NCBI GenBank assembly: GCA_964353335.1
Contig: CAYGVI010000003.1
Coordinates: 419,694-483,693, forward strand
Reading direction: 5' to 3'
Source: an uncultured Methanosarcinales archaeon
GTDB taxonomy: Archaea; Nanobdellota; Nanobdellia; Woesearchaeales; ARS49
DNA: 64,000 nucleotides
Positions 7,250 to 56,499 of this stretch are shown one piece after another. The position numbers were made by a program, and so were the translations under genes. Within the stretch, counting starts at the first letter, position 1. Every line of letters begins with the position of its first letter. Below the pieces are notes generated by a model that did not search any database, was not told the origin of the DNA, and saw nothing but the letters and a program-made list of their open reading frames with translations.

Positions 7250-8221
7250 TTACTCAGGCTGTTCGTTGCTTGAGCCCATCTTGGTAAAGCCGATTATGAG
7301 GCCGATTACAACCAAGAGTGCGACAAGGCACAACAGGATGACTTCCAAAGCCTTGCGGACTCCGCTTGTCTTTGGAACTGCGTCAACTGTGTTGTTCACA
7401 ACAGGCGGTGGCAGCTGTACTGTAGCAGTTTCCTTTTCCTGGTTGCAGGTTGGGTCTTCTGTTACTTCCATCTGTCCCTCGACGCCTGTCTTGCTGAAGC
7501 CGTCGTTGTATGCGACCTGAATGTTCATGTCGTAAACACCTGGCTTTGCGCACTTGGGAACGCGCAGGTAGAGCTCTTCAGTCTCCTTGTCCTCGTCATA
7601 CTCTATCTGATCTATGTAGTCAGATGCAGAGATTCCGAGGTCTGGAACCGAAACAGTCACCTTAACGTCTTCCTCGTCCTTCTCGCCGTAGTTGAAGACG
7701 CGCACAGTGGTCAGCAATGCCTGGCCTGCCTGAACGTGCCTTGAAGGCGTGAAGATTGCGTCAACGACCTGGAGGTCGTGGCGTGGAACATCCATCTTAA
7801 CGTTGTAGTTTTCGAATACTTCCTTTCCGTCGCGGTCAGTCACAACAACACGCACCTTGTAATTGTCCTCTTTAACCAGGTCGGGGAAGGTTATGTAGAG
7901 GGTCTTGCGGTATGTGACACCGGAGTCCATATCAAATGGTCCGACATTGTCAGAAAGTGTAAGATCCGTGCTGTGCTCAAATCCAGACACAAAGACCTGG
8001 ACTTCAACATCATCCACGTCTTCAGCTGCTTCGAGCGTGACTTCGAACTTGACCTTGCTGTCCCTGAGGACATCCAGGCGGTTGTTCTGGTCTGCGGATA
8101 TTGCGTGGTCGTCAAGCTCCACCCGAGTTATGTTAACCGGGATTGCGGCAACGGCACCGACCAGTGCCAATGCGCAGAGGAGCACAATTCCAAACATTCC
8201 AAATGCTTTGTGCGTGTTCAT
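7250..8221 (-). CDS. secreted/surface type I membrane protein (signal peptide, acidic beta-rich ectodomain, C-terminal TM anchor)
   Basis: N-terminal hydrophobic signal (GMFGIVLLCALALVGAVAA) and C-terminal TM (LEVILLCLVALLVVIGLIIGF). Confidence 0.5.
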   Translation of the reverse strand: MNTHKAFGMFGIVLLCALALVGAVAAIPVNITRVELDDHAISADQNNRLDVLRDSKVKFEVTLEAAEDVDDVEVQVFVSGFEHSTDLTLSDNVGPFDMDSGVTYRKTLYITFPDLVKEDNYKVRVVVTDRDGKEVFENYNVKMDVPRHDLQVVDAIFTPSRHVQAGQALLTTVRVFNYGEKDEEDVKVTVSVPDLGISASDYIDQIEYDEDKETEELYLRVPKCAKPGVYDMNIQVAYNDGFSKTGVEGQMEVTEDPTCNQEKETATVQLPPPVVNNTVDAVPKTSGVRKALEVILLCLVALLVVIGLIIGFTKMGSSNEQPE

Positions 8222-38084: not shown

Positions 38085-38137
38085 CGTAAAACAAAGAAGT
38101 CCTTAGGCACTATATAAAGTTTTAGGATGAGAAAAAC

Positions 38138-38437
38138 TTATTTTTTTGATATGTCTTTTATTTTCTGTTCAATCGTTGAGTCGCTTATCTGTTTGAAGCT
38201 GCCGTCCTTTTGGCCAAGAAATGTCATGTATTTTCCGTTTTTCTGCATTACAACATCAGGAATCCAGTCTTCATTAATGTCAAGAATGTGTGTTTTGTCT
38301 GGTTTTTGCGCAATTATCAGTTCTGCAAGCTCTTTTTTTGCCTGCTCTGAACGCTGGAAAGTCAAATATGTCCCTGCATAAGCGCCTATCAGTCCTGCCA
38401 CGCCGCAGGTTACCAGTGTTTTTGTCCAGTATAACAT
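38138..38437 (-). CDS. small membrane-anchored protein (99 aa)
   Basis: N-terminal TM helix. Confidence 0.4.
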   Translation of the reverse strand: MLYWTKTLVTCGVAGLIGAYAGTYLTFQRSEQAKKELAELIIAQKPDKTHILDINEDWIPDVVMQKNGKYMTFLGQKDGSFKQISDSTIEQKIKDISKK

Positions 38438-38488
38438 AAGGAGTGCTATCTTTTGTCAGCTTATAATTCTTAGATGTAGTGGCAAGGA

Positions 38489-38761
38489 CTACTTCAGAGC
38501 CTTTGCTTCGTCCTTGAACTTCTCAACTGACTTGGCTATTCGCTTTATTGCTGCAGAAACAGTCTTCTTTGGGTCTGCGCCGTCTGTCTCAACAATAAAT
38601 GTCGGGATGTTAATCAGCGGGTGCTCAACATTGAATCCTGCTGCCTTGACGTGCTCGTCATTCCAAAGCTCTTTCTTGAGCATATTTGCCATTGTGGAGC
38701 CGTCTCCCTCTATGTTGAAAACAAGCCTGCTCTTCTTTTCCTCAAGAATCTTGACTTCCAT
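38489..38761 (-). CDS. rpoL: DNA-directed RNA polymerase subunit L (Rpb11 homologue)
   Basis: Internal start MEVKILEEKKSRLVFNIEGDGSTMANMLKKELWNDEHVKAAGFNVEHPLINIPTFIVETDG (90 aa). The upstream part of the 182-aa track ORF is non-coding promoter sequence. Confidence 0.7.
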   Translation of the reverse strand: MEVKILEEKKSRLVFNIEGDGSTMANMLKKELWNDEHVKAAGFNVEHPLINIPTFIVETDGADPKKTVSAAIKRIAKSVEKFKDEAKALK

Positions 38762-38780
38762 AATAAGGAGGGATAGTGGA

Positions 38781-38835
38781 CTGTTTAAAAAGCTTGCGTA
38801 GCAAGCCTCGTCAGCTCTGCTGACCGCTAGCTTGC
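38781..38835 (-). promoter_or_regulatory. family B two-hairpin promoter-proximal element upstream of rpoL (includes TTTTTAAA TATA-like box ~23 nt before the ATG)
   Basis: CTGTTTAAAAAGCTTGCGTAGCAAGCCTCGTCAGCTCTGCTGACCGCTAGCTTGC. The two stems are GCTTGC/GCAAGC and GTCAGC/GCTGAC. Confidence 0.55.
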
Positions 38836-38879
38836 GTGTGGAAAAGATTATATACGGATTTGGCATTCGAGTTAATACG

Positions 38880-39218
38880 ATGAACAAGAAAGCATCTGTT
38901 GAGCTGGTTATTCTCGGCATAGTCGCGGTTATTGCGCTGGCAGGGCTTATTTTGCTGTTCTCAGGAATGACAGGCAAGGCAGCAGAGCCGTTTTGCATTG
39001 ACACTGATAACGGGCTGAATTTCACTGTAAAGGGCACTGTTTATTCCCTTGACCGCCCTTATGTTGACACGTGCGTGAATGCCCACGGCTCAGAGGCTCC
39101 AAGCGGTGATGGCTTGTGGGAATTTATCTGCAAGGATAACAAGATGAAGAAGATATATTACAGGTGCCCCCGTTTCTGCGTAGACGCAATATGCAGGCCC
39201 AGCAAGTTCTTGCAGTAA
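38880..39218 (+). CDS. pilin-like signal peptide Cys-rich secreted protein, tandem family member 1
   Basis: MNKKASVELVILGIVAVIALAGLILLFSG N-terminus. C-terminal motif YRCPRFCVDAIC. Confidence 0.55.
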   Translation: MNKKASVELVILGIVAVIALAGLILLFSGMTGKAAEPFCIDTDNGLNFTVKGTVYSLDRPYVDTCVNAHGSEAPSGDGLWEFICKDNKMKKIYYRCPRFCVDAICRPSKFLQ

Positions 39219-39244
39219 TGTTTTAAGTAAAAGAGGAACGTCCC

Positions 39245-39580
39245 ATGAACAAGAAAGGCTCAATAGCATTGGTTATTCTCGGGATTATTGCGGTTATTGC
39301 GCTGGTCGGAATGATTTTGCTGTTTACCGGCAAGATAACAGGCAATGCTGCGATCCCGCCGTGCACTGATTCAGACGGAGGCTTAAACTATCCTGTTAGG
39401 GGGATTGTTACTGTTGTCGGCGACTATGGCGTTCCTGTCAAATTCATAGACCAGTGCGAACGTGCAATGTCTGGCGTTGCGAAAGTTTACGGCCTTTCAG
39501 AGAACTATTGCGCTGGCAGCAAAAGGAATTTCGCATATTACACCTGCCCGCGCGGCTGTCTCAATGGCGCCTGCATTTAG
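39245..39580 (+). CDS. pilin-like signal peptide Cys-rich secreted protein, tandem family member 2
   Basis: MNKKGSIALVILGIIAVIALVGMILLFTGKITGN N-terminus. C-terminal motif YTCPRGCLNGACI. Confidence 0.55.
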   Translation: MNKKGSIALVILGIIAVIALVGMILLFTGKITGNAAIPPCTDSDGGLNYPVRGIVTVVGDYGVPVKFIDQCERAMSGVAKVYGLSENYCAGSKRNFAYYTCPRGCLNGACI

Positions 39581-39648
39581 GAGATTTGAGGAAACGTTTT
39601 AATACGCATACATGATAACTCCTACAAATAAGTAAAAGAGGTATTTTC

Positions 39649-40011
39649 ATGAACAAGAAAGGCTCAGTTGCATTGATTATTCTTGGAATTGTGGCAGTTA
39701 TTGCTCTTGTCGGGCTCATATTGGTTTTCACAGGCAAAGGGTCTGTAACAGGAAATGCGCTGGCAACAAGCTGTACTGATTCAGACAACGGTAAAAACTA
39801 CAAGTCAAGGGGCTCAGTGGGTCTGGGAATATCTTCATTTGAGGATACTTGCCTGCGCTTTCCCAGTGTTTCATATGACGGGCCTGGAAATTTTGTTAAA
39901 GAAGGGCTTTACCTTGCAGAAGGATATTGCGAGAATGGCAATATTCTGCGATTTGATGTTTACACCTGCCCGCGCGGCTGTGTTAACGGCGCCTGCATTC
40001 AGGATTTTTAA
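39649..40011 (+). CDS. pilin-like signal peptide Cys-rich secreted protein, tandem family member 3
   Basis: MNKKGSVALIILGIVAVIALVGLILVFTGK N-terminus. C-terminal motif YTCPRGCVNGACIQDF. Confidence 0.55.
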   Translation: MNKKGSVALIILGIVAVIALVGLILVFTGKGSVTGNALATSCTDSDNGKNYKSRGSVGLGISSFEDTCLRFPSVSYDGPGNFVKEGLYLAEGYCENGNILRFDVYTCPRGCVNGACIQDF

Positions 40012-40073
40012 GGAAACGTTTTAATACTTATACACGATAACTTCAAAAAATCAGTCAAAAAGAGGTGCATTTT

Positions 40074-40406
40074 ATGAACAAAAGAGCTTCAGTGGAATTG
40101 GTTATTCTCGGGCTTGTTGCGGTCATCGCGCTGGTCGGAATGATTTTGCTGTTTACAGGCAAGATAACAGGAAATAGCGTGGGAAACTACGTTTGCACAG
40201 ACACAGAGCGGGACATGGACTTTTACACAAGGGGAGTCACGACTTATGCAAGCGCCCCCTTTACAGACACCTGTGCAGATAACAACAATGTCGCGATTGG
40301 AGGTGCCGGACCCAAGCTTATTGAGTATTACTGCAGGGACGGAGCCATGTATACCAACACCCAAAGGTGCATAAATGGCTGTGTGAACGGCGCGTGCATT
40401 ATTTAA
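40074..40406 (+). CDS. pilin-like signal peptide Cys-rich secreted protein, tandem family member 4
   Basis: MNKRASVELVILGLVAVIALVGMILLFTGKITGN N-terminus. C-terminal motif RCINGCVNGACII. I preferred the ATG at 40074 over the track's GTG at 40065 by paralogue alignment. Confidence 0.55.
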   Translation: MNKRASVELVILGLVAVIALVGMILLFTGKITGNSVGNYVCTDTERDMDFYTRGVTTYASAPFTDTCADNNNVAIGGAGPKLIEYYCRDGAMYTNTQRCINGCVNGACII

Positions 40407-40408
40407 GT

Positions 40409-41170
40409 TTATTTTAACATTCCGGCAATGGCTGCAATTGCCATTGCCGCAGTTTCTATTCTTAGAATATTCCTGCCAAGAGATGCGGGAATGCAGCCTG
40501 CCTTCTTCAGGGCTGCTTTTTCCTCGTCGGTAAAGCCCCCTTCTGGCCCGATAAAGGCAATAGCGCTCTTTGGCTTTTCCTGAAGGGCTTCAAGTATTGG
40601 CTTGCCTTCCTGGTCAAGCAGAAGCTTTAGCTTTGCGTCCTGCTTCAAAGCCTCTTCTATCGTCGATAAGGGTTTAAGTTCAGGTATCCAGGCCTGCTTG
40701 CTTTGCTTGCAGGCTTCTATCAGGATTCTTTGCCAGCGCTCCTGCTTTGCCTCGCGCGGAAGCACTACAGAATGCTCTGTTTTAAGGGGAATTATCGTCG
40801 ATACTCCTAATTCTGTGAGCTTTTGGAGCATCCAGTCAGCGCGGTCTCCTTTTGGCACTGCTACTGCTATTGCAAGGGAAAACTCGCTTTGGGCAACTTC
40901 ATGGCTTTCCAGAAGCCTTGCCTTACCTTCTTCAATAAGCTCTGCTATGTTTACTGTGCCCTTTCCGTTGAACAAGCTCACTTTATCCTTTGTTTCTAGC
41001 CTTTGAGCCTTCAAGTGCCTAACTTCTTCTGGGTCAAGCACTATTTCGCCCGTCTGGGGCAGTTCTGGTGCGTAAAACCAAGGATTGTCGTTTGGGTTCA
41101 TCATATACTCATTTGCCTCAAAATGCTTGCATTTTGATGACTTGCCGAACGCTGTTCGGCATCGCCTCAC
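40409..41170 (-). CDS. rsmE: 16S rRNA methyltransferase RsmE-like
   Basis: GPEGGFTDEE...LGRNILRIETAAMA C-terminal motif. The true start may be the internal MMNPNDNPW. Confidence 0.65.
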   Translation of the reverse strand: MRRCRTAFGKSSKCKHFEANEYMMNPNDNPWFYAPELPQTGEIVLDPEEVRHLKAQRLETKDKVSLFNGKGTVNIAELIEEGKARLLESHEVAQSEFSLAIAVAVPKGDRADWMLQKLTELGVSTIIPLKTEHSVVLPREAKQERWQRILIEACKQSKQAWIPELKPLSTIEEALKQDAKLKLLLDQEGKPILEALQEKPKSAIAFIGPEGGFTDEEKAALKKAGCIPASLGRNILRIETAAMAIAAIAGMLK

Positions 41171-41517
41171 TTTTGATGAATAATACCCCTATATTTAACC
41201 CTTTTGCTCCCTCAAATTGCTCACTTTTGGTCAAAAGCACTAGTTTTAGATAGTGCCTAACCTATCCTAAACCCTTTCTGAACTCTCACTTTTCACTCAC
41301 AAAGTCCCTCTTTCTGGCTCCTTCTTTACCCTTCAGGACGCCTCACTTTGACGCATATAGGCATTATGTGTTTTATTGGTTCTTAGGCACCAGCATTAGG
41401 CACTAGTAAGCCCTCCTGAAGGCCCCTTTTGCCCTGGGCCAAGATTGGCAACGGTTAGACCTTGCCTTCCCCCGTCTTGGCTCTCTTATGACATTCTTGT
41501 CGCACTATATTATATGG

Positions 41518-41960
41518 GCGCCACTGCCTCATTCCCAGTCATTCCCAGTCCCATTCTCATTCCCAGATAATCCCTGCCGGGAATAACCCTGCTTCGTTCC
41601 CAGTCCCAAACTTTTCGCAGCAGTTCCACAGATCAGTATTGCCCCATTGAGCGTTAGCGAAATGGGGCCAGCCAGCTTGCTGGCGCTGCCTCATTCCCAA
41701 CACCACATTCTCATTCCCAAACGTTCCCAGATAGTCCCACTCATTCCCAGCCTGTCGTCACGGAAAGTTTCCGATAGTCCCACTCTCATTCCCACTCATT
41801 CCCAGGATATTCCCGCCTCCGTCTCAACTCATTCCCAGCTCATTCCCAGATAGTCCCAAGTGGGAATGTGGGAATGACGTTTTACCGACGATAAAACGTT
41901 CCCAAAAGGCAGCTGATAGTCCCAAAACAGTCCTGGGAACGTCATGGGAAGGTCCTGGGA
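41518..41960. repeat. iteron/ORB-like repeat array: >=13 copies of (C)TCATTCCCA(G), 3 of ACGTTCCCAG and 4 of GATAGTCCCA in direct orientation, followed by inverted copies (TGGGAATGTGGGAATGACG; CTGGGAACGTCATGGGAAGGTCCTGGGACC)
   Basis: Seen directly in the sequence. There is also an 8-bp hairpin, GCCCCATT-12nt-AATGGGGC, at 41641-41668. The whole array sits in a ~770-bp non-coding region upstream of wHTH paralogue A. Confidence 0.7.
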
Positions 41961-42750
41961 CCGTCCCAAAAACAGCAGAAAAGAGGACAAAACAGGGTAT
42001 TGGAAAACTTTTTATACCTGCCCTTGTTTTCACTTTGCCATGGGGTGGCTTTTCGGAAAAGAGGTTGACGACAAGGTTGCGCAGCTTGACCGCGCTTTAA
42101 AGGACAGCTTTGCGCATGTCAAGCAGGACACGAACGCGATATACCAATGGCTCGCGTACTTCCAGCAGCAGACAGCCCGCCAAAACCAGCTCATAGAGGA
42201 GCAGCAGCACGACCTCGACGACTACGAGCAGGAAATAGTCAGGCAGAAACAGCTTATCGAGAGGATGCAAACGGAATTAAGGGATGTTCCAAAGGATTCT
42301 GAGACAATAAAGCGTATTATTGACGCGTATTACGATTTCGACACCATGGTAGAGCGTATGAGACAAATAGAGGATAAATTGCGCCATTTGGAGCACCAAA
42401 AGGCAGCTCCAGCAGTTCAGCAGATAAGGCACGAGGTCGAGGCATTGCCTCACATTGCCCCTCCACCGTCGAGAACACAGGCTTTGAGGGACAAGATTGT
42501 CCAGAGGATAACCAGGAATTCGAAGGAATACCTGAAGGGGCTTATCATGAGCATGATCACGAAATATGGCAAGATATCGGCGCTGCAGCTCAGGGAAATG
42601 CTCGTCGAGGAACAGGGCCTTGCCAGCAAGAGCAGCTTCTACAGGCTCTTAGAGGAGCTTGAGGATGAGTCTGCAATAGGAGTTATTCACGAAGGAAAGG
42701 AAAAGCTGCTTATGGTCGGAGGGCACCTGAAAAAGGCTGTTGGAAGATAG
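41944..42750 (+). CDS. coiled-coil protein with C-terminal winged-helix DNA-binding domain (putative regulator), paralogue A
   Basis: Gln/Glu-rich heptads, then ISALQLREMLVEEQGLASKSSFYRLLEELEDESAIGV (wHTH). The start may be the internal MGWLFGKEV. Confidence 0.45.
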   Translation: MGRSWDRPKNSRKEDKTGYWKTFYTCPCFHFAMGWLFGKEVDDKVAQLDRALKDSFAHVKQDTNAIYQWLAYFQQQTARQNQLIEEQQHDLDDYEQEIVRQKQLIERMQTELRDVPKDSETIKRIIDAYYDFDTMVERMRQIEDKLRHLEHQKAAPAVQQIRHEVEALPHIAPPPSRTQALRDKIVQRITRNSKEYLKGLIMSMITKYGKISALQLREMLVEEQGLASKSSFYRLLEELEDESAIGVIHEGKEKLLMVGGHLKKAVGR

Positions 42751-42818
42751 GGTTTCCAGCACAAAAATCCTTTTAAAGGAGCCAATCACAAGCAGCACAG
42801 TTATCGAGGATAGTTGGG

Positions 42819-43388
42819 GTGGAAAGTTTGAAGTCAAAACAAGCAGTGTTAGTGCACAGGGACGAGGCAGGCGCAGAGCTTGCCATGAACTCAATTTTCG
42901 ACGCATTCAGGGAGGAGCTCGACGACCACAGGGCAGCGATTAACGAGAACACAAACGAGCTCCAGTCAAACCACGAATACATCCGTTCTGTCGAGGAAAA
43001 GGTCGACAAGATTCACGCCCGCATAGAGGAGCTTTTCCTTCTTGTCGAGGGCAAAAAAGCAGAGCAAAAAATCGAAATCCAGCCTTTGACAAAGCGCGAA
43101 CAGGAGGTCTTCCAGGCGCTTTATATCGTCGGAGAAGGCATCCCTTTTGTCAGCTACAAGCAGCTCGCCAGGAAGCTCAACATCTCTGACACGCTTATTT
43201 CAGGATTTATCACAAACCTCGTCGAGAAAGGGGTTCCAATCCTGAAAAAGTATGACGAAGGGCAGGCATTTGTGCAATTGGAGCCCAAATTCAGGCAGAA
43301 ACAGGCAAAAGAGGTAGTTATTGGCCTGAATTCTCTGTTGTCACACTGGATGCAGGCTCCTCAGGCTGTTCAGAAGCCCCAGCCCTGA
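42819..43388 (+). CDS. coiled-coil protein with C-terminal winged-helix DNA-binding domain, paralogue B
   Basis: LTKREQEVFQALYIVGEGIPFVSYKQLARKLNISDTLISGFITNLVEKGVPIL wHTH. The N-terminal ELDDHRAAINENTNELQ is similar to paralogue A. Confidence 0.45.
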   Translation: MESLKSKQAVLVHRDEAGAELAMNSIFDAFREELDDHRAAINENTNELQSNHEYIRSVEEKVDKIHARIEELFLLVEGKKAEQKIEIQPLTKREQEVFQALYIVGEGIPFVSYKQLARKLNISDTLISGFITNLVEKGVPILKKYDEGQAFVQLEPKFRQKQAKEVVIGLNSLLSHWMQAPQAVQKPQP

Positions 43389-43842
43389 GCTTTTCCTTCT
43401 TTATCTCGCTTTGAAGCTGTTCGATAAGCTTGAAAGAGCCATCCAAATGGGTTTTTATCGTCGATTCTGCCTTTCTGAACGCCCCTTCCAGGTTTGTGCC
43501 GTTCAGCTCATAACCGATGACAACTTTTCCATTGTTCACAAAGCTGGTTTTCTTGAGGATATTCAGGTCAAGCCAGCGGTGCAGATACTCGTACATTGTC
43601 TGGCGCTTTATGCCTGCGAAAGAGCCCATATCCTCGACGGGCATTACTGCCAGCTCAGGCTTTTTCTCCCTATTGGCAGCCTTCTTGCGCTCTGATAGCT
43701 CGAGAAGGAGCTTGTGCATCTGGGCGCTGCCGTCTTTTTTCCTCGGCAAAAGCCCAAAGCGGGCCAGAAGTGTCTTTGCGATATCCTCGGGAACTGCCTG
43801 TTCAGGCGCCTCTGAATGTTCGAGTTGGATTTTCATTTTCAA
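43318..43842 (-). CDS. hypothetical protein with putative wHTH (174 aa)
   Basis: MYEYLHRWLDLNILKKTSFVNNGKVVIGYEL. Confidence 0.4.
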   Translation of the reverse strand: MKMKIQLEHSEAPEQAVPEDIAKTLLARFGLLPRKKDGSAQMHKLLLELSERKKAANREKKPELAVMPVEDMGSFAGIKRQTMYEYLHRWLDLNILKKTSFVNNGKVVIGYELNGTNLEGAFRKAESTIKTHLDGSFKLIEQLQSEIKKEKLRAGASEQPEEPASSVTTENSGQ

Positions 43843-44327
43843 GGCGTTTAGACCTTCTGGTTAAAAAGCCTTGCGTAATCCCGACCAGTGTCCAGTGAAA
43901 CCCCAGAAAGTCGCACTTTGTGGAGTTTGCCGATGCCTCAGCGTCGGCATTAACCCGACAAAGGATGATTGAAACTGTCGCCAAAATGCCAGAATTTAGC
44001 CGTTTTCGCGTTTAAACCGCTTTAGAGCAGACTTTTTTCTCAAAATGGCTCAGAATACGGTACTTCAATGCATTTTTGAGCCATCAAACCCCAGATTAGC
44101 TAAAAATCCCGACTAAAACCACCTACCATCCCCATTCCAGATGTGCACAAAATTGTGGTTTCAGCGAAAATCCAGTCGGAGTCGGCAAAAACGCTGACTT
44201 TTCCTGATTTTCCCGACGAATAAGGTCAAGGTCGACCTGCTGCATACCCGTGGTTCTACACCAAAAGACCCACTTCGAGGCCCCACTATGAGTAATTCTG
44301 GCATTTTCCCTGACAAGTTTGAGTGCC

Positions 44328-44600
44328 TCAAAAACCTTTCAAAACCCTTGATTTGGTCAAAAACTGTTTCTGTAAAAAATTCATTTTAAATCGGTTGCTT
44401 TTTTTCGCCATTTTGCCGACGGAGCGCAGAACAATTACCTTTCGCAAGTGACAGTTGTAGCATAAAATAGAAATTAGGAAAATTGTTTCACAGAATATTC
44501 TTTTACAAAATATCTTTAACAAAAGTTGTCTTGCAAAGAATATTATCCAAAGCATATTTTCGTCTATATTTTTCTAAATAAGGAAAATAAAAACCAACCA
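44328..44600. other. AT-rich non-coding stretch (candidate DNA-unwinding element or promoter-rich region) within a 930-bp ORF-free region (43860..44793)
   Basis: Seen in sequence as long A/T runs. The track has only short low-complexity ORFs here. Confidence 0.4.
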
Positions 44601-44793
44601 TGAACAAAAGTGAGGGTAAGAAAGAAAGCATGAGCAAACGCAAAGTGCCTAACTTCCAGCAACATCCCAAGAGTCGCAGGCCAGAATCAGCCAAGATACC
44701 GACTCAGGAGCCAGAACGCCCTTAGGCACCAGAAAAATTGGGCATTAAAACATAAGAAAGTGACAGGGTTGAAGAACGAAAGTGAGAGAATGC

Positions 44794-45537
44794 CTATCCG
44801 ATGTATCCAACCTGCTTTTGTTCCTTTAGTTCCTGGGCTTTCATTGTCTGGCTGAGCATGCCTTTGAGCTTCTTTTCAAACTCCTCTGCCTGCTTCAGCA
44901 ATGGTGTGTAATTCACCTTTAATCCCAGTATTTTGTCGAGAATTTCAATGATTTTAGCAGCTGCCTTGCTGTCAGGCAGTTTTGAGTGTGTTTCAGCGAA
45001 TAATGAGAGTATTGGAAGCTGGTTGCGGAGCAGTATTGCAGCTGTGACGCCCATTATGATTCCTTCGCCAAGGCAGTCAACTCCCATTTTTTCCATTGTG
45101 CTCTTCAGCTGGGGATGGTCTGTGTAGAAGAACCCGCGGGTTTCCTCAGTTTCAGAGCTGCCAACCCCTTCAAGCGTGATAACCTCTGCAGCATCAATCT
45201 GCTTGCACAGGGTAAGTATCAGGTCTGCTGCGTGGAATTCCAATCCCTGCGCAGATGTTATTGCGTGGACAATCACAAGGTTGTATTCCTTGTTGTAGTA
45301 AATGCCAATCGGGTCAACTATCTTGTCGCCGTGCACAGCCAAAGTCGCAGGCGGGTCTTCAAAGTAGTAGCTTCCTATTTTCTCGCACTTCAGATGGTCA
45401 AGCAGAAAACCTGTTGCTATTGTTCCAACAAGCCCAAGCCCGGGGAACCCTTCAATTACCGTCGCTCCCTTTGGCTTCTTTGTCAGCACGAGCTCAGCGT
45501 GCAAAGGGTGCGGACCGTGAGCCTCTTTTTTCTGCAT
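44794..45537 (-). CDS. PAC2-family (proteasome assembly chaperone-like) protein
   Basis: VIEGFPGLGLVGTIATGFL N-terminal motif. 247 aa. Confidence 0.45.
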   Translation of the reverse strand: MQKKEAHGPHPLHAELVLTKKPKGATVIEGFPGLGLVGTIATGFLLDHLKCEKIGSYYFEDPPATLAVHGDKIVDPIGIYYNKEYNLVIVHAITSAQGLEFHAADLILTLCKQIDAAEVITLEGVGSSETEETRGFFYTDHPQLKSTMEKMGVDCLGEGIIMGVTAAILLRNQLPILSLFAETHSKLPDSKAAAKIIEILDKILGLKVNYTPLLKQAEEFEKKLKGMLSQTMKAQELKEQKQVGYIG

Positions 45538-45616: not shown

Positions 45617-48600
45617 ATGCCCGAAAACGCAGTGTTTGCGGTAGTGAACGACGCGAATGGTGACATTGATTTTCTCAGGAATCTTTTCTCAAAGCTTCCG
45701 CAGGCGGTCAGCAATGAAACAGAGAAAAAACTGGACTTAATTGCGCTTATCGGAAACACTCCTGGCTCGCAAATGAGCACTGAAGAGCTCAAGGAATTTG
45801 ACGAGCGCGCATGGCAATTGCTTTGTGACGAGTTTAATGCCAACCGCGAAGGCTGGCAAAAGAAAAAAGTAATGAATGCCGCAGACCTTGGCAGCATTTA
45901 CGCAGTTGACCCTTGCGGCAATCCTGCCAGCAAGCCTTTTAGGCATTACATCGGCGCTGTTGACACAGGCGGAATCCCTGTGGAAGGGATTCTTGTTCCG
46001 AGGTTCCGTAAATTCTACCGCGACCTTGGCGAGGCAATGAGGACTGCGAGGGGCGAGGGAATAAAAGTCAAGGTTATGGGAAACAATATCTTCCAAGTAG
46101 AGGCGCTTTCATCAGACAGTTATCTTGACTGGCAGAAGGTTGTAATCAACAGGCTGGGCATAACCAGCTCAGGGCTTGATGAAATCACAGATGCTGCTGA
46201 TGCGCCGCTGCTCGCTTATCGCAGCGGAAAATCAATTGAAGAGGACGAAGCTCTGAAAAGCACGTTCTTTTCAGATATGAAGGAATCAGGCGTGATTATA
46301 TGCAATTCAAACATACCTTCCAAGGAAAGGCTTATGACCGGCGAACGCTACATGATTATTGCAGGTCAAAAAAATCCAATTGCGCACGGCAAAATCGCGA
46401 TACGCGAATCAAACTACCTCCCAAGCAAGATTTTTGACGAGATTGCCCACAAGCTTCCGCACTCGCCTGTGGGTGTTTATGTTTTCGACGGCAGGGCAGG
46501 CGCGCACTTGCAGTTTGTCTGGCATACTGAGACAGGCGCGTTCCAAAAGGCATCAAAACACAACTTCAGGCTTCATGAGGACGCTGATGCAGAACAGACA
46601 CGGAATTTCAGCGGTGAACGCGTGCCTATTCGTCCGCCGGATGCAGACACTCCTCCCCCGGTTCCGAGCAGTGAACCAGCCCATTTCTCGCAGCCTGAAG
46701 CCGGCCAGGGAACACGGCCTTTGGCTCTTGAAGCGAGAATTCAGCAACTTGAAGGGCAGCTGGCTGCCGCTGAAAAAATACAGGGGCAGCTTGAGGATGA
46801 GAATGAAGCGATTGTAAGCAGGTCAATGAGGGTTATTGGAAAAGTAAAGCGGTGGGCCACTGAAAGAGTTGCAGCTGCAAAGAAGGATGCAGATGATGCA
46901 GATGCCTACCTGATGGATCACGTTGATGTTTTTACTCTTGTCAAGGATCTTGATGGTTATGTGACTGAGAAACATCCTGAATTCAAAGGAAAAAAGCCTG
47001 TTGAAAGGGTTCTTGGATACTTGAAATGGTTCACTGGTCTGGGAGCAACCATTGACGAGCTGAGGGCAAAGGCACAGGAGGGGCTTTCTTCAAAGGCAAG
47101 GGTCAGTGAGCTCGAGCAGCAAATTGGTGCTAAAAATCAGGAGTTTGAATCAATACAATCGCTCTATGAGCAGGCAGTTGAGCCTCTTGCCAAGCGCCTG
47201 AAGGCAATATGTGGCGGCAGAATCCAGGCTGAAAATCCCCGCGATATACTGGAACAGGTTGCAGGGCTTGTCCAAAGCGGCGAGTTTGAACCTGAATCTG
47301 ATGATAAGTTGAAGCAGCAGTACGAAGCGTTTGAGCGGCAGCGTGTTGGATACGAACAGTCTGCTGCGAAAATACAGGAAGGGCACAAAAAGGCGCGCGA
47401 AGCTGACAAAAAGGAACATGATGCAGAAATTGAGAGGCTCACCAGCGAGCAAGTCACACAATTGAATTCCCGTAATGATGATGTTGATAGCGCACGCGAA
47501 GAGCGCGACCAGGAAAAAGAAAAAGCATTGAACCTGGAAAGAACTGCTGAAAGAAAACAAAAAGAACACGCAGCGCTTGAACAACGACTTGAAACCGCAG
47601 CCACAGAACTTGAAGCACTGCGAAAAGGCCAGCCAGACGCCGGAGAATTATCCAAGCTCAGGCAGGGGCGCGAAGCTGACAAACAGACGTATGATACCGA
47701 AATCGCTGCCAAACAAAAGGAAATTGACAGCCACAAAACCGAGTTGGAAACCAGGCGCAAGAAGCTTGAACACGCAGACAAAATGTTCGGCGCAGTTGCG
47801 AAAATCATTGAATCTGTTGCTCCCTATCTGAAAACAAGGTTTGGAAACAAACTGGTTGAAACAGACCCCATGAAAGTACTTGTAGAATTCAAAACTAAGG
47901 CGCTGAAGGCAGGAGATGAGCCAGGAGCAGGCGAAATTGAGAAGCGCATTGCAGAAATTGAAGCACAGCGTGCGGCTCTTGAACAAGAAAACAACAAACT
48001 GAAAGGCGATTATGCGACAGCCCAAACAAGTATTGGGCAAGTCAAGAATGCTGCTGAACTCCAGCTTACAGAAGTGCGAAAGGGCTATGATGAACAGCTT
48101 GCTGTAAAAGTAAGGGAATACGCTGCCCTTGAACAGAGGCGCCAAACCTCAGAACAAAAGTATGGCAAGGCTGTGGAGGATCGCACTGATCTTGAAGAAC
48201 GGTTGAAAAAGACGCGCGAAGAACATGGCAAAGCGCTTGGTGAACAGCGCACAGGCTTTGAAAAACAGCTTGGCGATGCGCGCAAGCAGTATGAAGCAGA
48301 CCTTAAACGCGCAAGGGAAGAGAAAGGCGAGCCAGACACTAAGCTTGCTGCAAAAGTTACTGAGCTTGAACAGAAGCTGGAGAAAGCAGGCAAGGACTTG
48401 GCTGCAAATCGCAAAAAAATGCAGGAAGCGCATGCAAAAGCTCTTGCAGAAAAGGACAAGTCACACACTGATGCTCTTACAAGGAAGGACACTCAGCGCG
48501 AGGCAATGGAGACTCAGTATCGCCGCGAAGTTGGGAAGAAGGATCAGGAATTGCAGGAGAAGGCAGATGAAATATTGCGCATTCGCAGGAATGCTGCAGC

Positions 48601-49414
48601 GCCTGACGACCTTGTCGCGATTGTGCGCAACTGGGCATCAGCCCATCCTGTGAAGGCGCCAAGGGTCAATATCCCGAAAGGAGCGCGCTTTGAAAAAGTG
48701 CTGGAAGGCATGCGGGCAAGAATTGAGAAAAACAAGGCATATGATAATTTCAAGGAGCCACTGCTTGAAGCTTATGACGCGATGCTGCACGGCGGCGGTT
48801 ATGCAAAGCGCATCAATAACCTGAAGGAAGTTATCGGCAGTAATGCATGCGAACTGGTGAATACGCGAGCGAACCGCGAGCTCAGGACACTTGTCGCGGT
48901 AAGCAGGATGTATCTTGGCAGGACTTCATTTGCGAAGAACAATCCGAAGGAATATGCCCTGCTTTGCGAGCTCCAGTCAGGTCTGCCATTGGGCTATGTT
49001 GCCTCATTGTGGGACCAAATCCGCGCCATTGAAAATGACAAGGATGAGCTTGAGGGCAGGATTTCAAGGCTGCACGACGATTACAACTCAGCACGCTCAA
49101 TAGCAGACTACGCAGACAAAGCACTGTATGCTTCGACAGGGCTTTCTGGCAATGCAAAAATCAGGAAGCTTCAGTATGCGTGCAGGAACTACAGGGTGGC
49201 GCGCGAGGGTGTTCCATTTGATGCTGCAAAGCAGAACTGCTCTTTCAATATTGGAATGTGCCTTGCATTGATTGCAAGCGAAACGCACAATGAGGATAAG
49301 TTTGAGGAAGCACTAAGCGAGTTTAAGCTGGCGCCAAAGAGTGCTTCGAGAAAAGACTGGATGGATTATTGCAAAGGGGAGATTAAATTTGCGCCGGTCG
49401 CACGGGTGGCATAG
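45617..49414 (+). CDS. giant coiled-coil protein (1265 aa) with globular N- and C-terminal domains
   Basis: Continuous ORF. The N-terminal ~330 aa is globular with a possible degenerate calcineurin-like pattern (VVNDANGDIDF ... LIALIGNTPG). A Pro-rich linker is followed by ~600 aa of K/E/A/Q/R-rich heptads and a ~250-aa C-terminal globular domain. Confidence 0.6.
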   Translation: MPENAVFAVVNDANGDIDFLRNLFSKLPQAVSNETEKKLDLIALIGNTPGSQMSTEELKEFDERAWQLLCDEFNANREGWQKKKVMNAADLGSIYAVDPCGNPASKPFRHYIGAVDTGGIPVEGILVPRFRKFYRDLGEAMRTARGEGIKVKVMGNNIFQVEALSSDSYLDWQKVVINRLGITSSGLDEITDAADAPLLAYRSGKSIEEDEALKSTFFSDMKESGVIICNSNIPSKERLMTGERYMIIAGQKNPIAHGKIAIRESNYLPSKIFDEIAHKLPHSPVGVYVFDGRAGAHLQFVWHTETGAFQKASKHNFRLHEDADAEQTRNFSGERVPIRPPDADTPPPVPSSEPAHFSQPEAGQGTRPLALEARIQQLEGQLAAAEKIQGQLEDENEAIVSRSMRVIGKVKRWATERVAAAKKDADDADAYLMDHVDVFTLVKDLDGYVTEKHPEFKGKKPVERVLGYLKWFTGLGATIDELRAKAQEGLSSKARVSELEQQIGAKNQEFESIQSLYEQAVEPLAKRLKAICGGRIQAENPRDILEQVAGLVQSGEFEPESDDKLKQQYEAFERQRVGYEQSAAKIQEGHKKAREADKKEHDAEIERLTSEQVTQLNSRNDDVDSAREERDQEKEKALNLERTAERKQKEHAALEQRLETAATELEALRKGQPDAGELSKLRQGREADKQTYDTEIAAKQKEIDSHKTELETRRKKLEHADKMFGAVAKIIESVAPYLKTRFGNKLVETDPMKVLVEFKTKALKAGDEPGAGEIEKRIAEIEAQRAALEQENNKLKGDYATAQTSIGQVKNAAELQLTEVRKGYDEQLAVKVREYAALEQRRQTSEQKYGKAVEDRTDLEERLKKTREEHGKALGEQRTGFEKQLGDARKQYEADLKRAREEKGEPDTKLAAKVTELEQKLEKAGKDLAANRKKMQEAHAKALAEKDKSHTDALTRKDTQREAMETQYRREVGKKDQELQEKADEILRIRRNAAAPDDLVAIVRNWASAHPVKAPRVNIPKGARFEKVLEGMRARIEKNKAYDNFKEPLLEAYDAMLHGGGYAKRINNLKEVIGSNACELVNTRANRELRTLVAVSRMYLGRTSFAKNNPKEYALLCELQSGLPLGYVASLWDQIRAIENDKDELEGRISRLHDDYNSARSIADYADKALYASTGLSGNAKIRKLQYACRNYRVAREGVPFDAAKQNCSFNIGMCLALIASETHNEDKFEEALSEFKLAPKSASRKDWMDYCKGEIKFAPVARVA

Positions 49415-55254: not shown

Positions 55255-56499
55255 TCACAAATAATAAGTAAGGGTGGGAATGAGCAAACAGCCCATTGCG
55301 TGCGCCCTGCTCACTTTCAGCCATGGTGCAAGAAGCCCGAGCAAAGCACTTATTATCAAAATGCAAAGCCCGCGCCAGCCAACAAGGAAAGTGCACAATA
55401 CGACGAGAAAAAGCAAAATTGACGCGCTGAGCATGGGATAATTCACGCGCTCGACAAGCTCTGAAAATCCTTTTGCGCAGAGCAATGCGAGCACTGCTGC
55501 GATTAGCCCTGCTGCCAGTGCAACACCGCCGAGCAGCCATAAGTCATTTGAAGTTGTTTCAATCAATTGCTCCATCACTGCTATTGCGCCGTTCCTTGCC
55601 TTGCCCAAAACAACAAGCGTCACAAGCGATGACAAAAAGTCTGCTGTGTGCAGCCCTCCGACAAGCACAAGGTAAGAATGGCTTGATGACTTGAATATCG
55701 TCGTGGAAAGTGCTCCTGCGTGCCCTGGCCCAAGCCCTGGGAAAAGCGTCACAAGAGTTCCGCCCACGAGCCCGCCAAGGATTCCTTTTGCAGCCTCTTT
55801 TTTCTTCAGCCGCGCAAACCTGCCGATTTGGACAGGGATTTTTGTGTTCTCAAAAAGCGCCAGCGCCAAAGAGCTGGCTCCGAACAGCCCTGAGAGCAAT
55901 GGCAGCAAAGGCTGGCTGAGCTCGAGCTTTTTTAAGACAATAAAACCCAGCAAACCTGTTGCGCCGAACACAATTGCTGCCTTCCAGAAGTCCTTTCCTT
56001 CTTTCGCGATTAGCACGATTATCAGGGCAATAAGCAGCCATCCTATGAACGGCTTAAGCGCGCTGAAAAGTATTGGAAACGCCCATATTAACAATGGAAA
56101 TGCAGCAAGAGTCAGGACAAGGCAGCCTAATGCGCCGATTGTTGCAAACCTGACAGCATCATAGCCAAGCCCCTTGTGGAGCATTTTGTGGCCAGGCAGC
56201 ATTATAAGGGCAGAGCTGTCATCAGGAGCTCCGAGGAATATCGACGGCACAACCTCGACAAATGCGTGGGTTATGCCCATTGCCACGATAAAAACCGCAA
56301 TGTCTGTGTCTGCAAAATAGTCAAGCAGGTATGAGCTTCCTGCGAGTACAAGCGAGGCAATCAGGTTGATGTGGATGCCTGGCACAAGCCCTGCGATTAC
56401 GCCGAAGAAAATGCCAAGGATGAAGGCGGTTATCATTATTATTGTGCGGAAATTATTCCGGGTTTTCCGCAAGCTTTCCGACGACAGCCGCTTTGCCAT
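55255..56499 (-). CDS. TctA-family (DUF112) tripartite tricarboxylate transporter-like membrane protein
   Basis: Polytopic, with two GxxPG(I/L) repeats (GLVPGIHINL and FPGLGPGHAGAL). Confidence 0.5.
   Translation of the reverse strand: MAKRLSSESLRKTRNNFRTIIMITAFILGIFFGVIAGLVPGIHINLIASLVLAGSSYLLDYFADTDIAVFIVAMGITHAFVEVVPSIFLGAPDDSSALIMLPGHKMLHKGLGYDAVRFATIGALGCLVLTLAAFPLLIWAFPILFSALKPFIGWLLIALIIVLIAKEGKDFWKAAIVFGATGLLGFIVLKKLELSQPLLPLLSGLFGASSLALALFENTKIPVQIGRFARLKKKEAAKGILGGLVGGTLVTLFPGLGPGHAGALSTTIFKSSSHSYLVLVGGLHTADFLSSLVTLVVLGKARNGAIAVMEQLIETTSNDLWLLGGVALAAGLIAAVLALLCAKGFSELVERVNYPMLSASILLFLVVLCTFLVGWRGLCILIISALLGLLAPWLKVSRAHAMGCLLIPTLTYYL

Follow-up and report, generated by a model that had tools for sequence, protein, structure and literature searches.

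The described systems closest to the locus reported here are the iteron plasmid replicons (RepA, RepE, pi), the centromere-operator arrays of plasmid R1 (parC/ParR) and of pSM19035 (omega heptads), the archaeal chromosomal origins (oriC), the RTP/Ter system of Bacillus subtilis and the dif boundary of Thermococcus kodakarensis. The iteron replicons carry tandem direct repeats of 17-22 bp just upstream of a winged-helix gene and inverted copies at the promoter of that gene, as is expected for autorepression. Centromere-operator arrays consist of short contiguous units, both direct and inverted, at the promoter of the operon encoding their binder, and the iterons of parC are 11 bp long. Known archaeal origins almost always adjoin orc1/cdc6 or whiP. 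The RTP of B. subtilis is a winged-helix dimer with a C-terminal helix, and its inverted polar sites lie beside its own autoregulated gene; archaeal termination is not known to use Ter sites. The dif site of T. kodakarensis lies in an intergenic region of 1.9 kb that has, on both sides, binding sites of the winged helix-turn-helix (wHTH) nucleoid protein TrmBL2, which stalls Smc-ScpAB (PMC11840125). Conserved flanking repeats accompany dif in Thermococcales, and in Sulfolobales dif lies near xerA (PMC2958812). The locus analysed here is the segment between rsmE and a PAC2 gene in a 64-kb chromosomal fragment of a member of the Woesearchaeota (DPANN archaea, class Nanoarchaeia). The whole of that fragment is called the window below. 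The segment encodes three proteins from the open reading frames (ORFs) ORF1, ORF2 and ORF3, and carries four DNA motifs, which were named A to D.

It was concluded that the locus holds previously undescribed, order-wide arrays of cis-elements together with three uncharacterised DNA-binding proteins. The motif evidence identified the repeats as arrays of protein-binding sites, because they are polar and helically phased, include an 11-bp period, are conserved as motifs and not as spacers, and persist within coding DNA. It was further proposed, with a probability of roughly 0.45, that ORF1-3 assemble on these large arrays of their own binding sites and form a self-regulating higher-order complex.

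The analysis covered about 80 species-level genomes, from which 85 loci were fetched round ORF1 homologues; 81 non-redundant loci were aligned on the ORF1 start, with a reach of 8-10 kb per side. The ORF1 family comprised at least 175 homologues, and 192 matches were recorded among species-representative genomes. All named homologues were from Woesearchaeota or Nanoarchaeota, and a copy of ORF1 identical at 100% was found on JBGPSD010000001.1, a Nanoarchaeia metagenome-assembled genome. The gene order UppS - p174 - RpoL - (rsmE) - gap - ORF1 - ORF2 - (ORF3) - gap - PAC2 was kept in the 85 loci wherever the contig extends, down to an ORF1 identity of 35%. The same motifs were found at the same positions and on the same strands across the genomes, in a locus present as a single copy, and A, C, ORF1 and ORF2 were universal among the loci. 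Every locus was collected via ORF1, so that an empty site could not have appeared in the sample. The locus is a fixed, order-wide feature of Woesearchaeota chromosomes, and a mobile island was ruled out.

The rest of the window is 87% coding, and no other non-coding stretch in it is as large as the two ORF-free gaps at 41108/41171-42039 on the left and 43843-44793 on the right. On each side, in the orientation of motif A, the same order was observed: an A/B module, AT-rich DNA, an array (C on the left, D on the right), a promoter and a gene.

Motif A (consensus AACnCTCACTTTT, core CTCACTTT) was polar in the 81 loci, lying on the plus strand on the left and on the minus strand on the right. About four left copies per locus were located at -1250 to -250 from ORF1, 304 in all and every one of them on the plus strand. 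The right copies, at +2250 to +3500, were predominantly on the minus strand, and such copies were present in 26/26 ORF3-type loci and in 12/19 loci of the xerA type, in which a recombinase gene takes the place of ORF3. The distances between A copies fell only at 40-42, 50-54, 62-67, 73-76, 83-87 and 93-98 bp, a ladder of 10.5-10.75 bp. Therefore, the A sites lie on one face of the double helix, which is a DNA-level property. Motif A also extends into a gene. Within 32 rsmE genes, 65 copies were counted, about two per gene and all on one strand, antisense to rsmE, when nearly none were found in UppS, PAC2 and ORF1-3. These copies are read in frame as KVS, KVR or KSE codons. Other genomes have a different S-adenosylmethionine-dependent methyltransferase gene in the place of rsmE, and A was kept there as the same in-frame codons. 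The A copies in rsmE are thus a DNA-level constraint overlaid on coding sequence.

In the window, the left A/B module occupies 40977-41403 on the plus strand, with A at 40977, 41166, 41220, 41285 and 41342, all on the plus strand. Motif B (tAGTGCCTAA, searched as the word GTGCCTAA) accompanies A in both modules and was found on the left at 41015(+), 41253(+), 41383(-) and 41396(-). The outermost left A and B fall within the coding sequence of rsmE, the left neighbour (40409-41107, minus strand). The right module (44605-44786, minus strand) is the inverted counterpart of the left one and ends 8 bp from the stop codon of the PAC2 gene, the right neighbour (44794-45537, minus strand). Two A copies, at 44607(-) and 44779(-), and an A-like GTCACTTT at 44757(-) were found in it, alongside B copies at 44645(+) and 44722(-). 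The promoter of the p174-UppS operon has the TATA box CTTTATATA, which is immediately followed by an outlying B (GTGCCTAA, 38103-38121, minus strand). This copy is conserved, with the consensus TTATAAATTCATAGTGCCTAA derived from 55 far-left minus-strand copies, and was present in 26/26 xerA-type loci. The inverted pair of B sites was conserved only in the close clade. Close relatives of the window carry extra DNA between the last right A and the PAC2 stop codon (L001 12707-12942; L002 12718-13113, with an ORF of 94 amino acids). Since these insertions occurred at the same point, the outer edge of the right module is a recurrent insertion junction.

The word GTGCCTAA was found seven times in the window, always at 38103-44729. 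Shuffled sequences gave an expectation of 1.57, none of 100 shuffles reached seven, and the presence of 6/7 copies inside 3.7 kb had a chance probability of ~3e-7. The number of CTCACTTT 8-mers was ordinary (8 against 3.5 expected; 2/100 shuffles reached 8), when their clustering was unusual, with 7/8 inside 3.8 kb (p ~2e-8). A preceding sequence-only reading had described repeated word pairs at both edges of the segment, and most of these words were recovered as it gave them. The word AGTGCCTAAC was confirmed at 41252 and 44644 (rsmE holds a third copy, at 41014), as were CTTAGGCACCAG at 41382 and 44721, TTAGGCAC at 38103 and 41396, and the right-gap words GTCGGCAAAAA at 44181 and TTTTGCCGAC at 44411; both gaps proved ORF-free, as it had stated. 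Of the four 10-mers that it had listed at the left edge, those at 41166 and 41220 are CTCACTTTTG, but those at 41285 and 41342 carry the 8-mer CTCACTTT only. The right-hand copies that it had placed at 44620 and 44775 exist, but at 44605 (CAAAAGTGAG) and 44777 (CGAAAGTGAG). The 11-bp array at 41516-41970 and the 318-bp element at 44003-44322 were absent from that reading.

The first of these, the C array, lies directly upstream of ORF1, mostly on the plus strand, and consists of about 25 units of YA[T/G]TCCCA at a spacing of 10-11 bp. Between 5 and 25 copies were present per locus. In the window the units are of the TCATTCCCAG type, and CATTCCCA was found 16 times against 2.6 expected, 12 of them within the array. 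For 77 loci, the mean count of TCCCA in the 550 bp before ORF1 was 9.7 on the plus and 2.4 on the minus strand, against a background of 0.67, an 18-fold enrichment. The spacing between units peaked at 11 bp (218 cases), followed by 10, 22, 33, 44 and 55 bp. Clusters of C were essentially confined to the locus, in the window as well as in the flanks. Inverted units occur at 41861-41876 and 41930-41960, beside the putative ORF1 promoter (42005-42039, plus strand), which has a TATA-like ctttttatac at 42009-42018 and a short or absent leader. The array ends about 50 bp before the ORF1 start codon, with its last units inverted and the TATA box between. The promoter sequence was conserved in L001, L002 and L004. 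A comparison of the window (41560-41780) with L006 from the same species (7520-7760) revealed distal C units gained, lost and reshuffled, when the promoter-proximal 240 bp and the ORF1 proteins were identical. A C-type word TGGGAATGA and the A word CTCACTTT were also recorded 35 bp apart at 55275-55317, 20-60 bp inside the 3' end of TctA. This A word is the sole one outside the locus and the C word is among the few outside it; their occurrence there is probably due to chance.

The D core (44003-44322, no strand assigned) is a non-coding element of about 318 bp with a fixed length and almost no length variation. It contains repeated (A/T)TTCCCGAC words and a CCCGTC-n3-GACGGG dyad. An iterated nhmmer search detected D in 35 loci; it was present in 34/38 ORF3-bearing loci and in 0/43 others. 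The core behaves as a DNA-level element, being of fixed length, without coding signal or RNA structure, and co-occurring strictly with ORF3. A protein gene hidden in D was considered and rejected, as stop codons were found in nearly all frames of all copies, no frame was open throughout and there was no 3-periodicity. The putative ORF3 promoter (43861-43906, minus strand) comprises a TATA box CTTTTTAAC and an upstream AATCCCGAC / CCAGTGTCCAGTG block. This block was conserved in close relatives, CCGAC-type words recurred in distant ones, and (A/T)TTCCCGAC words were also present just upstream of the ORF3 TATA box. Two hairpins of the form TTGCCGA...TCGGCAT, the only two in the window, were noted at 41143-41161 in the rsmE leader and at 43928-43949 upstream of ORF3. 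Each sits in a stretch of about 50 bp that some relatives lack: L002 has neither stretch, and L001 and the same-species L006 are without the right one. These hairpins may be small palindromic insertions carrying the CCGAC word.

An AT-rich stretch resembling a DNA unwinding element (44440-44600, no strand assigned) adjoins the inner side of the right A/B module. The AT-rich region at 44328-44600 that had been noticed earlier is real, with a GC content of 29.7%, and the 25.5% of 44440-44600 makes it the most AT-rich 160 bp of the window. A right-hand copy of A was present in 44 loci; in 40 of them, the 150 bp adjoining the inner side of the first such A(-) belonged to the lowest 1% of GC content of the 16-kb locus and were usually the lowest. 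The position was kept although the sequence was not conserved and the module was located anywhere from +2.4 to +5.9 kb from ORF1. A weaker AT-rich stretch was observed inside the left A array, after the last left-hand A.

ORF1 (42040-42750, plus strand) encodes a protein of 236 amino acids. A start at 41944 had been assumed before, leaving a left gap of about 770 bp; the start codon is instead the ATG at 42040, as all homologues begin with MGW and the TATA box is at 42010. Therefore, the left gap runs to 42039. The AlphaFold model (predicted local distance difference test score, pLDDT, 79) consisted of a long N-terminal helix (residues 4-82, coiled coil) and a C-terminal winged helix. The protein represents an uncharacterised Woesearchaeota-specific family. 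ORF2 (42885-43388, plus strand), which adjoins ORF1 in 79/81 loci, encodes about 167 amino acids, or 189 if translated from the GTG at 42819. It has an N-terminal coiled coil and an HTH domain, and HTH_11/HTH_24 matches were obtained for 13-14 of 32 members. ORF1 and ORF2 had been taken for paralogues, and this was rejected: BLASTP gave E=6.9 and hhalign a probability of 2.5%, only the architecture being common to both. ORF3 (43318-43836, minus strand) encodes about 172 amino acids from the ATG at 43836. It was modelled as a winged helix with a long C-terminal helix (pLDDT 87, predicted template modelling score 0.75). It is the most conserved of the three proteins, with 65-90% identity across the order and 60 invariant columns, and is under very strong purifying selection.

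Fold searches with ORF1 and ORF3 returned generic winged-helix regulators only, namely the winged helix of TFE-alpha, Lrs14/AbfR2, MarR and ArsR, with AspA and TubR ranking lower. Scans of ORF1-3 against Pfam, NCBIfam, PHROG and PADLOC gave sub-threshold coiled-coil and HTH noise and no family, no significant match to the Rep, DnaD or RepA families was obtained, and a sequence search of the PDB with ORF3 gave no match. Family scans and fold searches likewise showed no membership of ORF1-3 in the TrmB, ParR or RTP families.

It was proposed that the three locally encoded proteins act as (winged-)HTH dimers assembling on arrays of their own sites. ORF1, possibly with ORF2, would dimerise through its long coiled coil and would bind the 11-bp C units cooperatively, coating 200-450 bp on one face of the helix. 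The inverted C units beside the TATA box would then allow the complex to switch off the ORF1-ORF2 promoter. ORF3 would act likewise on D, upstream of its own promoter. The polar and phased A arrays, together with B and with AT-rich DNA on the inner side, would serve as outer anchors on both sides, and the coiled-coil proteins could bridge these anchors into a loop of about 3.5 kb. Such a logic would be that of iterons or of centromere-operators, as in ParR-parC, omega-heptads and Rep-iterons.

The likeness to iteron replicons is in the tandem direct repeats just upstream of a winged-helix gene, the inverted copies at the promoter of that gene, the nearby AT-rich stretch and the helical phasing. 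The locus differs from them in being chromosomal, order-wide and syntenic, in its unit of 11 bp instead of 17-22 bp, and in ORF1, which has one winged helix and a coiled coil and no detectable Rep homology. With the centromere-operator arrays it shares the 10-11-bp period, which implies a protein superstructure on one face of the DNA, and tandem short iterons were found at the promoter of the operon of ORF1, their putative binder, as in ParR/parC. In contrast to those arrays, no ParM or ParA nucleoside triphosphatase (a P-loop or actin-like gene) is encoded nearby, the candidate binder is a wHTH and not a ribbon-helix-helix protein, the locus is chromosomal, and the A, B and D arrays and the AT-rich element are additional.

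Several points weigh against the proposed complex. The 10.5-bp Rayleigh peak of the A spacings has a nominal p of ~6e-19 that is inflated by the shared ancestry of the loci. We infer the pairing of each protein with its motif from adjacency and co-occurrence, and cooperativity, looping and the use of the complex in the cell (gene control, chromosome organisation or replication) are likewise part of the model. Ordinary autoregulation needs one to three operators, not some 1.8 kb of conserved non-coding DNA in a streamlined genome. Gene control by itself also leaves two features unaccounted for, the extreme AT-rich stretch at its conserved position and the extension of the arrays over 500 bp of an adjacent gene, and for both an origin or a structural element is the better fit. 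B sites were also found in loci that lack ORF3; therefore, at least one binder lies outside the proposed pairings.

The strongest rival of the self-regulating complex is a chromosomal replication origin, or one of several, of bipartite form and flanking the genes of origin-binding proteins. This was considered possible, though rather unlikely. The A motifs would be polar initiator boxes, 44440-44600 would be the unwinding element, C and D would be iteron-like control sites, and the role of initiator would fall to ORF1/ORF2 or to an Orc1/Cdc6 whose gene lies elsewhere. Such an origin would be consistent with the two gaps being the largest non-coding stretches of the window, with polar and helically phased repeats inverted between the sides, with the 11-bp iteron-like array and with a single-copy, universal and syntenic locus, as is expected of an origin. 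An AT-rich candidate for unwinding lies beside the repeats, at a position conserved in 40/44 loci, and a weaker AT stretch is present within the A array on the left. The minimum of the raw cumulative GC skew also fell at 41-46 kb of the window, and the effect of the side on the GC skew at third codon positions (GC3) was +0.036 +/- 0.016.

Opposed to this were the results of the gene and skew analyses. Neither orc1/cdc6 nor any other P-loop ATPase of at least 200 residues was encoded within about 8 kb of ORF1-3 in some 80 loci; the P-loop matches near the locus were two of the GTPase type located 3-4 kb to the right, and in the window there were two translation GTPases 30 kb away. The consensus of origin recognition boxes (ORB) and mini-ORBs, TTCCAGTGGAAAC, matched 15 times with up to three mismatches, against 21.9 expected, and formed no cluster. 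The GC skew at 4-fold sites pooled from 80 loci was flat at the locus (-0.003 +/- 0.010), a test weakened by the short flanks, and strand asymmetry and gene-orientation bias were the same on both sides. A breakpoint at 58 kb fitted the GC3 skew of the window better than the locus did. The origin nevertheless kept its standing as the leading rival, because the flanks were short and archaeal skews are often weak. Searches of the literature for a described Woesearchaeota or DPANN origin returned nothing relevant.

When set beside known archaeal oriC regions, the locus resembles them in its long intergenic DNA, opposed polar repeats, extreme AT stretch, adjacent winged-helix genes and single conserved locus per genome region. 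It differs in having no orc1/cdc6 within about 8 kb, no ORB consensus and no flip of skew or orientation, and in its repeat modules, which are 3.3 kb apart with genes between. If it were an origin, it would be one unlinked from orc1/cdc6, without ORB boxes and built round a new family of coiled-coil winged-helix proteins, a doubtful but arguable case in which the neighbouring AT-rich element would be unwound under the direction of the polar and phased A boxes. A separate compositional pattern was noted at 4-fold sites from -8 to +8 kb of ORF1. Minus-strand genes favoured A over T (+0.09 to +0.37) and plus-strand genes favoured T over A (-0.05 to -0.24), in both cases on both sides. This preference could be a replication-strand effect or an expression-linked codon bias, ribosomal protein genes being on the minus strand.

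A site of chromosome organisation linked to Xer/dif was judged improbable, and well behind an origin. According to this explanation, the locus would act as a domain boundary or polar roadblock, as a trap for replication forks or as a site resembling a centromere, and machinery coming from left or right would be halted or anchored at the A arrays, which face in opposite directions. In one variant, a CTCF-like pair of polar roadblock arrays would form a domain boundary that houses xerA and dif in the sister clade. The evidence for it came from 31 genomes without ORF3 (including L019, L026, L027, L030, L035, L039, L043-L052, L057, L058, L061, L062, L069-L075 and L085), in which a conserved gene for a tyrosine recombinase, convergent to ORF2, fills the slot after ORF2 (about +1300 to +6000 relative to the start of ORF1). 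One representative scored 255.6 against the 220-bit cut-off of the NCBIfam XerA equivalog and stayed under the integron-integrase cut-off, and the other recombinases were 60-91% identical to representatives. An 11-6-11 dif-like site, AcTTCgnnTAA-N6-TTATACGAACT, was found in 22/31 of the xerA-type loci, mostly at the 5' end of the recombinase gene, so that the xerA-dif pair sits between two oppositely oriented A arrays. In several of these loci, small cargo ORFs are set apart by additional dif/attC-like sites, an arrangement that resembles an array of the integron-like or Xer-exploiting kind. A serine recombinase was found instead in L024 and L040. Motif B was not adopted as an Xer half-site despite the GCCTAA common to B and the arms of the dif-like sites, because xerA-type loci contain motifs of both types and the 11-6-11 arrangement was never formed by B.

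The replacement of ORF3 by xerA and the dif-like sites between opposed A arrays recall the T. kodakarensis dif boundary (PMC11840125), as do the very large conserved intergenic DNA and the sites flanking it on both sides. The likeness extends to the dif repeats of Thermococcales, and the parC iterons of plasmid R1 are similar to the tandem units of 11 bp. Against this, neither a dif-like site nor xerA was present in the 64 kb of the window or in the loci of the ORF3 subclade, no ParA, ParM or SMC partner was encoded nearby, and the pooled 4-fold sites and the strand asymmetry showed no skew flip such as a terminus would give. ORF1-3 are not members of the TrmB, ParR or RTP families. The resemblance to RTP/Ter consists of the winged helix and long helix of ORF3 and the opposed polar sites near its gene. 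RTP itself was a weak fold match of ORF3 at rank 43, which reflects a generic wHTH resemblance (template modelling scores of 0.25-0.36).

It was considered very improbable that non-coding RNAs or very long 5' leaders are transcribed from the gaps and that the repeated words act at the level of RNA. The strong nucleotide conservation without coding potential, the TATA-like boxes in or near both modules and a 14-nt perfect inverted repeat (43983/44294) bracketing the D core of the window would be consistent with RNA. However, no Rfam match at gathering score was obtained for the window and none at E<10 for the gaps, and no tRNA was found. RNAalifold predicted 0 conserved pairs in 30 sequences of the D core, the only part that was folded. 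The spacing ladder of A (10.5 bp) and the period of C (11 bp) are features that belong to the DNA double helix, and the inverted pair of B was not conserved outside the close clade. The assignment of the ~60-bp A units to C/D-box small RNAs was dropped, as the TGATGA beside the first A was not conserved in L002 and L004.

The sequence-only reading had offered a plasmid or provirus remnant as an alternative to an origin region, and the wider possibility that the locus is what remains of a plasmid, provirus or transposon that integrated with inverted repeat modules at its ends was dismissed as scarcely credible, since the same syntenic context was found in about 80 genomes and the window contains no integrase, transposase or direct att-type repeats. 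What spoke for such an element was the bracketing of the block by inverted A/B modules, the insertions accumulating just outside the modules, and the content between ORF2 and the right module, which varies by subclade and in the xerA subclade includes recombinases and small cargo genes with dif/attC-like sites between. Nevertheless, the locus was universal, syntenic and single-copy across the order, with no empty site seen among loci all found through ORF1, and recombinases were limited to the sister subclade. The modules at the ends are defined by motifs and are inverted, not direct duplications, no relative of ORF1 was found in IMG/VR (2.9 million viral contigs), matches in PHROG were not significant, and a scan of viral contigs for paired A motifs gave chance matches only. 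The very strong purifying selection on ORF3 also argues against a remnant, and the conservation of motifs with variable spacers points to a present-day function. Of the observations named beforehand as contrary to a mobile island, syntenic conservation was indeed made, but the edge motifs were not genome-wide promoter words and they do bracket the block. An origin from an integrated element, if any, would at most be an ancient domestication. Inverted repeats round a low-coding segment need not mean a mobile element.

Further, two features of the neighbouring DNA were recorded. Four tandem paralogous genes at 38832-40406 encode small proteins of 111-128 amino acids with an N-terminus MNKKGS...ALVILGI..VIALVG..LLFTGK (signal or pilin-like) and a Cys-rich C-terminus. 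The copy number varied, with about three in L001, about one in L002 and none in L004, and one paralogue scanned against Pfam gave no match. On the other side, 45617-49414 encodes a coiled-coil protein of 1265 amino acids that had no Pfam or PADLOC match. This protein evolves very fast, being 84% identical in the same-species L006 and 33% in L001, where its neighbours are about 90% identical, and L002 has three smaller genes in its place.

The genomes of DPANN archaea are small and densely packed with genes, and almost no member has been cultivated. Here, about 1.8 kb of non-coding DNA has been kept over a whole order, with phasing and polarity precise to the base pair. The four motifs, three proteins and one AT-rich element are concrete reagents that can be tested. 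There is a substantial chance that the locus is a chromosome-maintenance site of an unusual type. As an origin or a boundary, the locus would give DPANN archaea their first defined site of chromosome maintenance; if it were a regulatory complex only, it would still be unusually elaborate for an archaeon.

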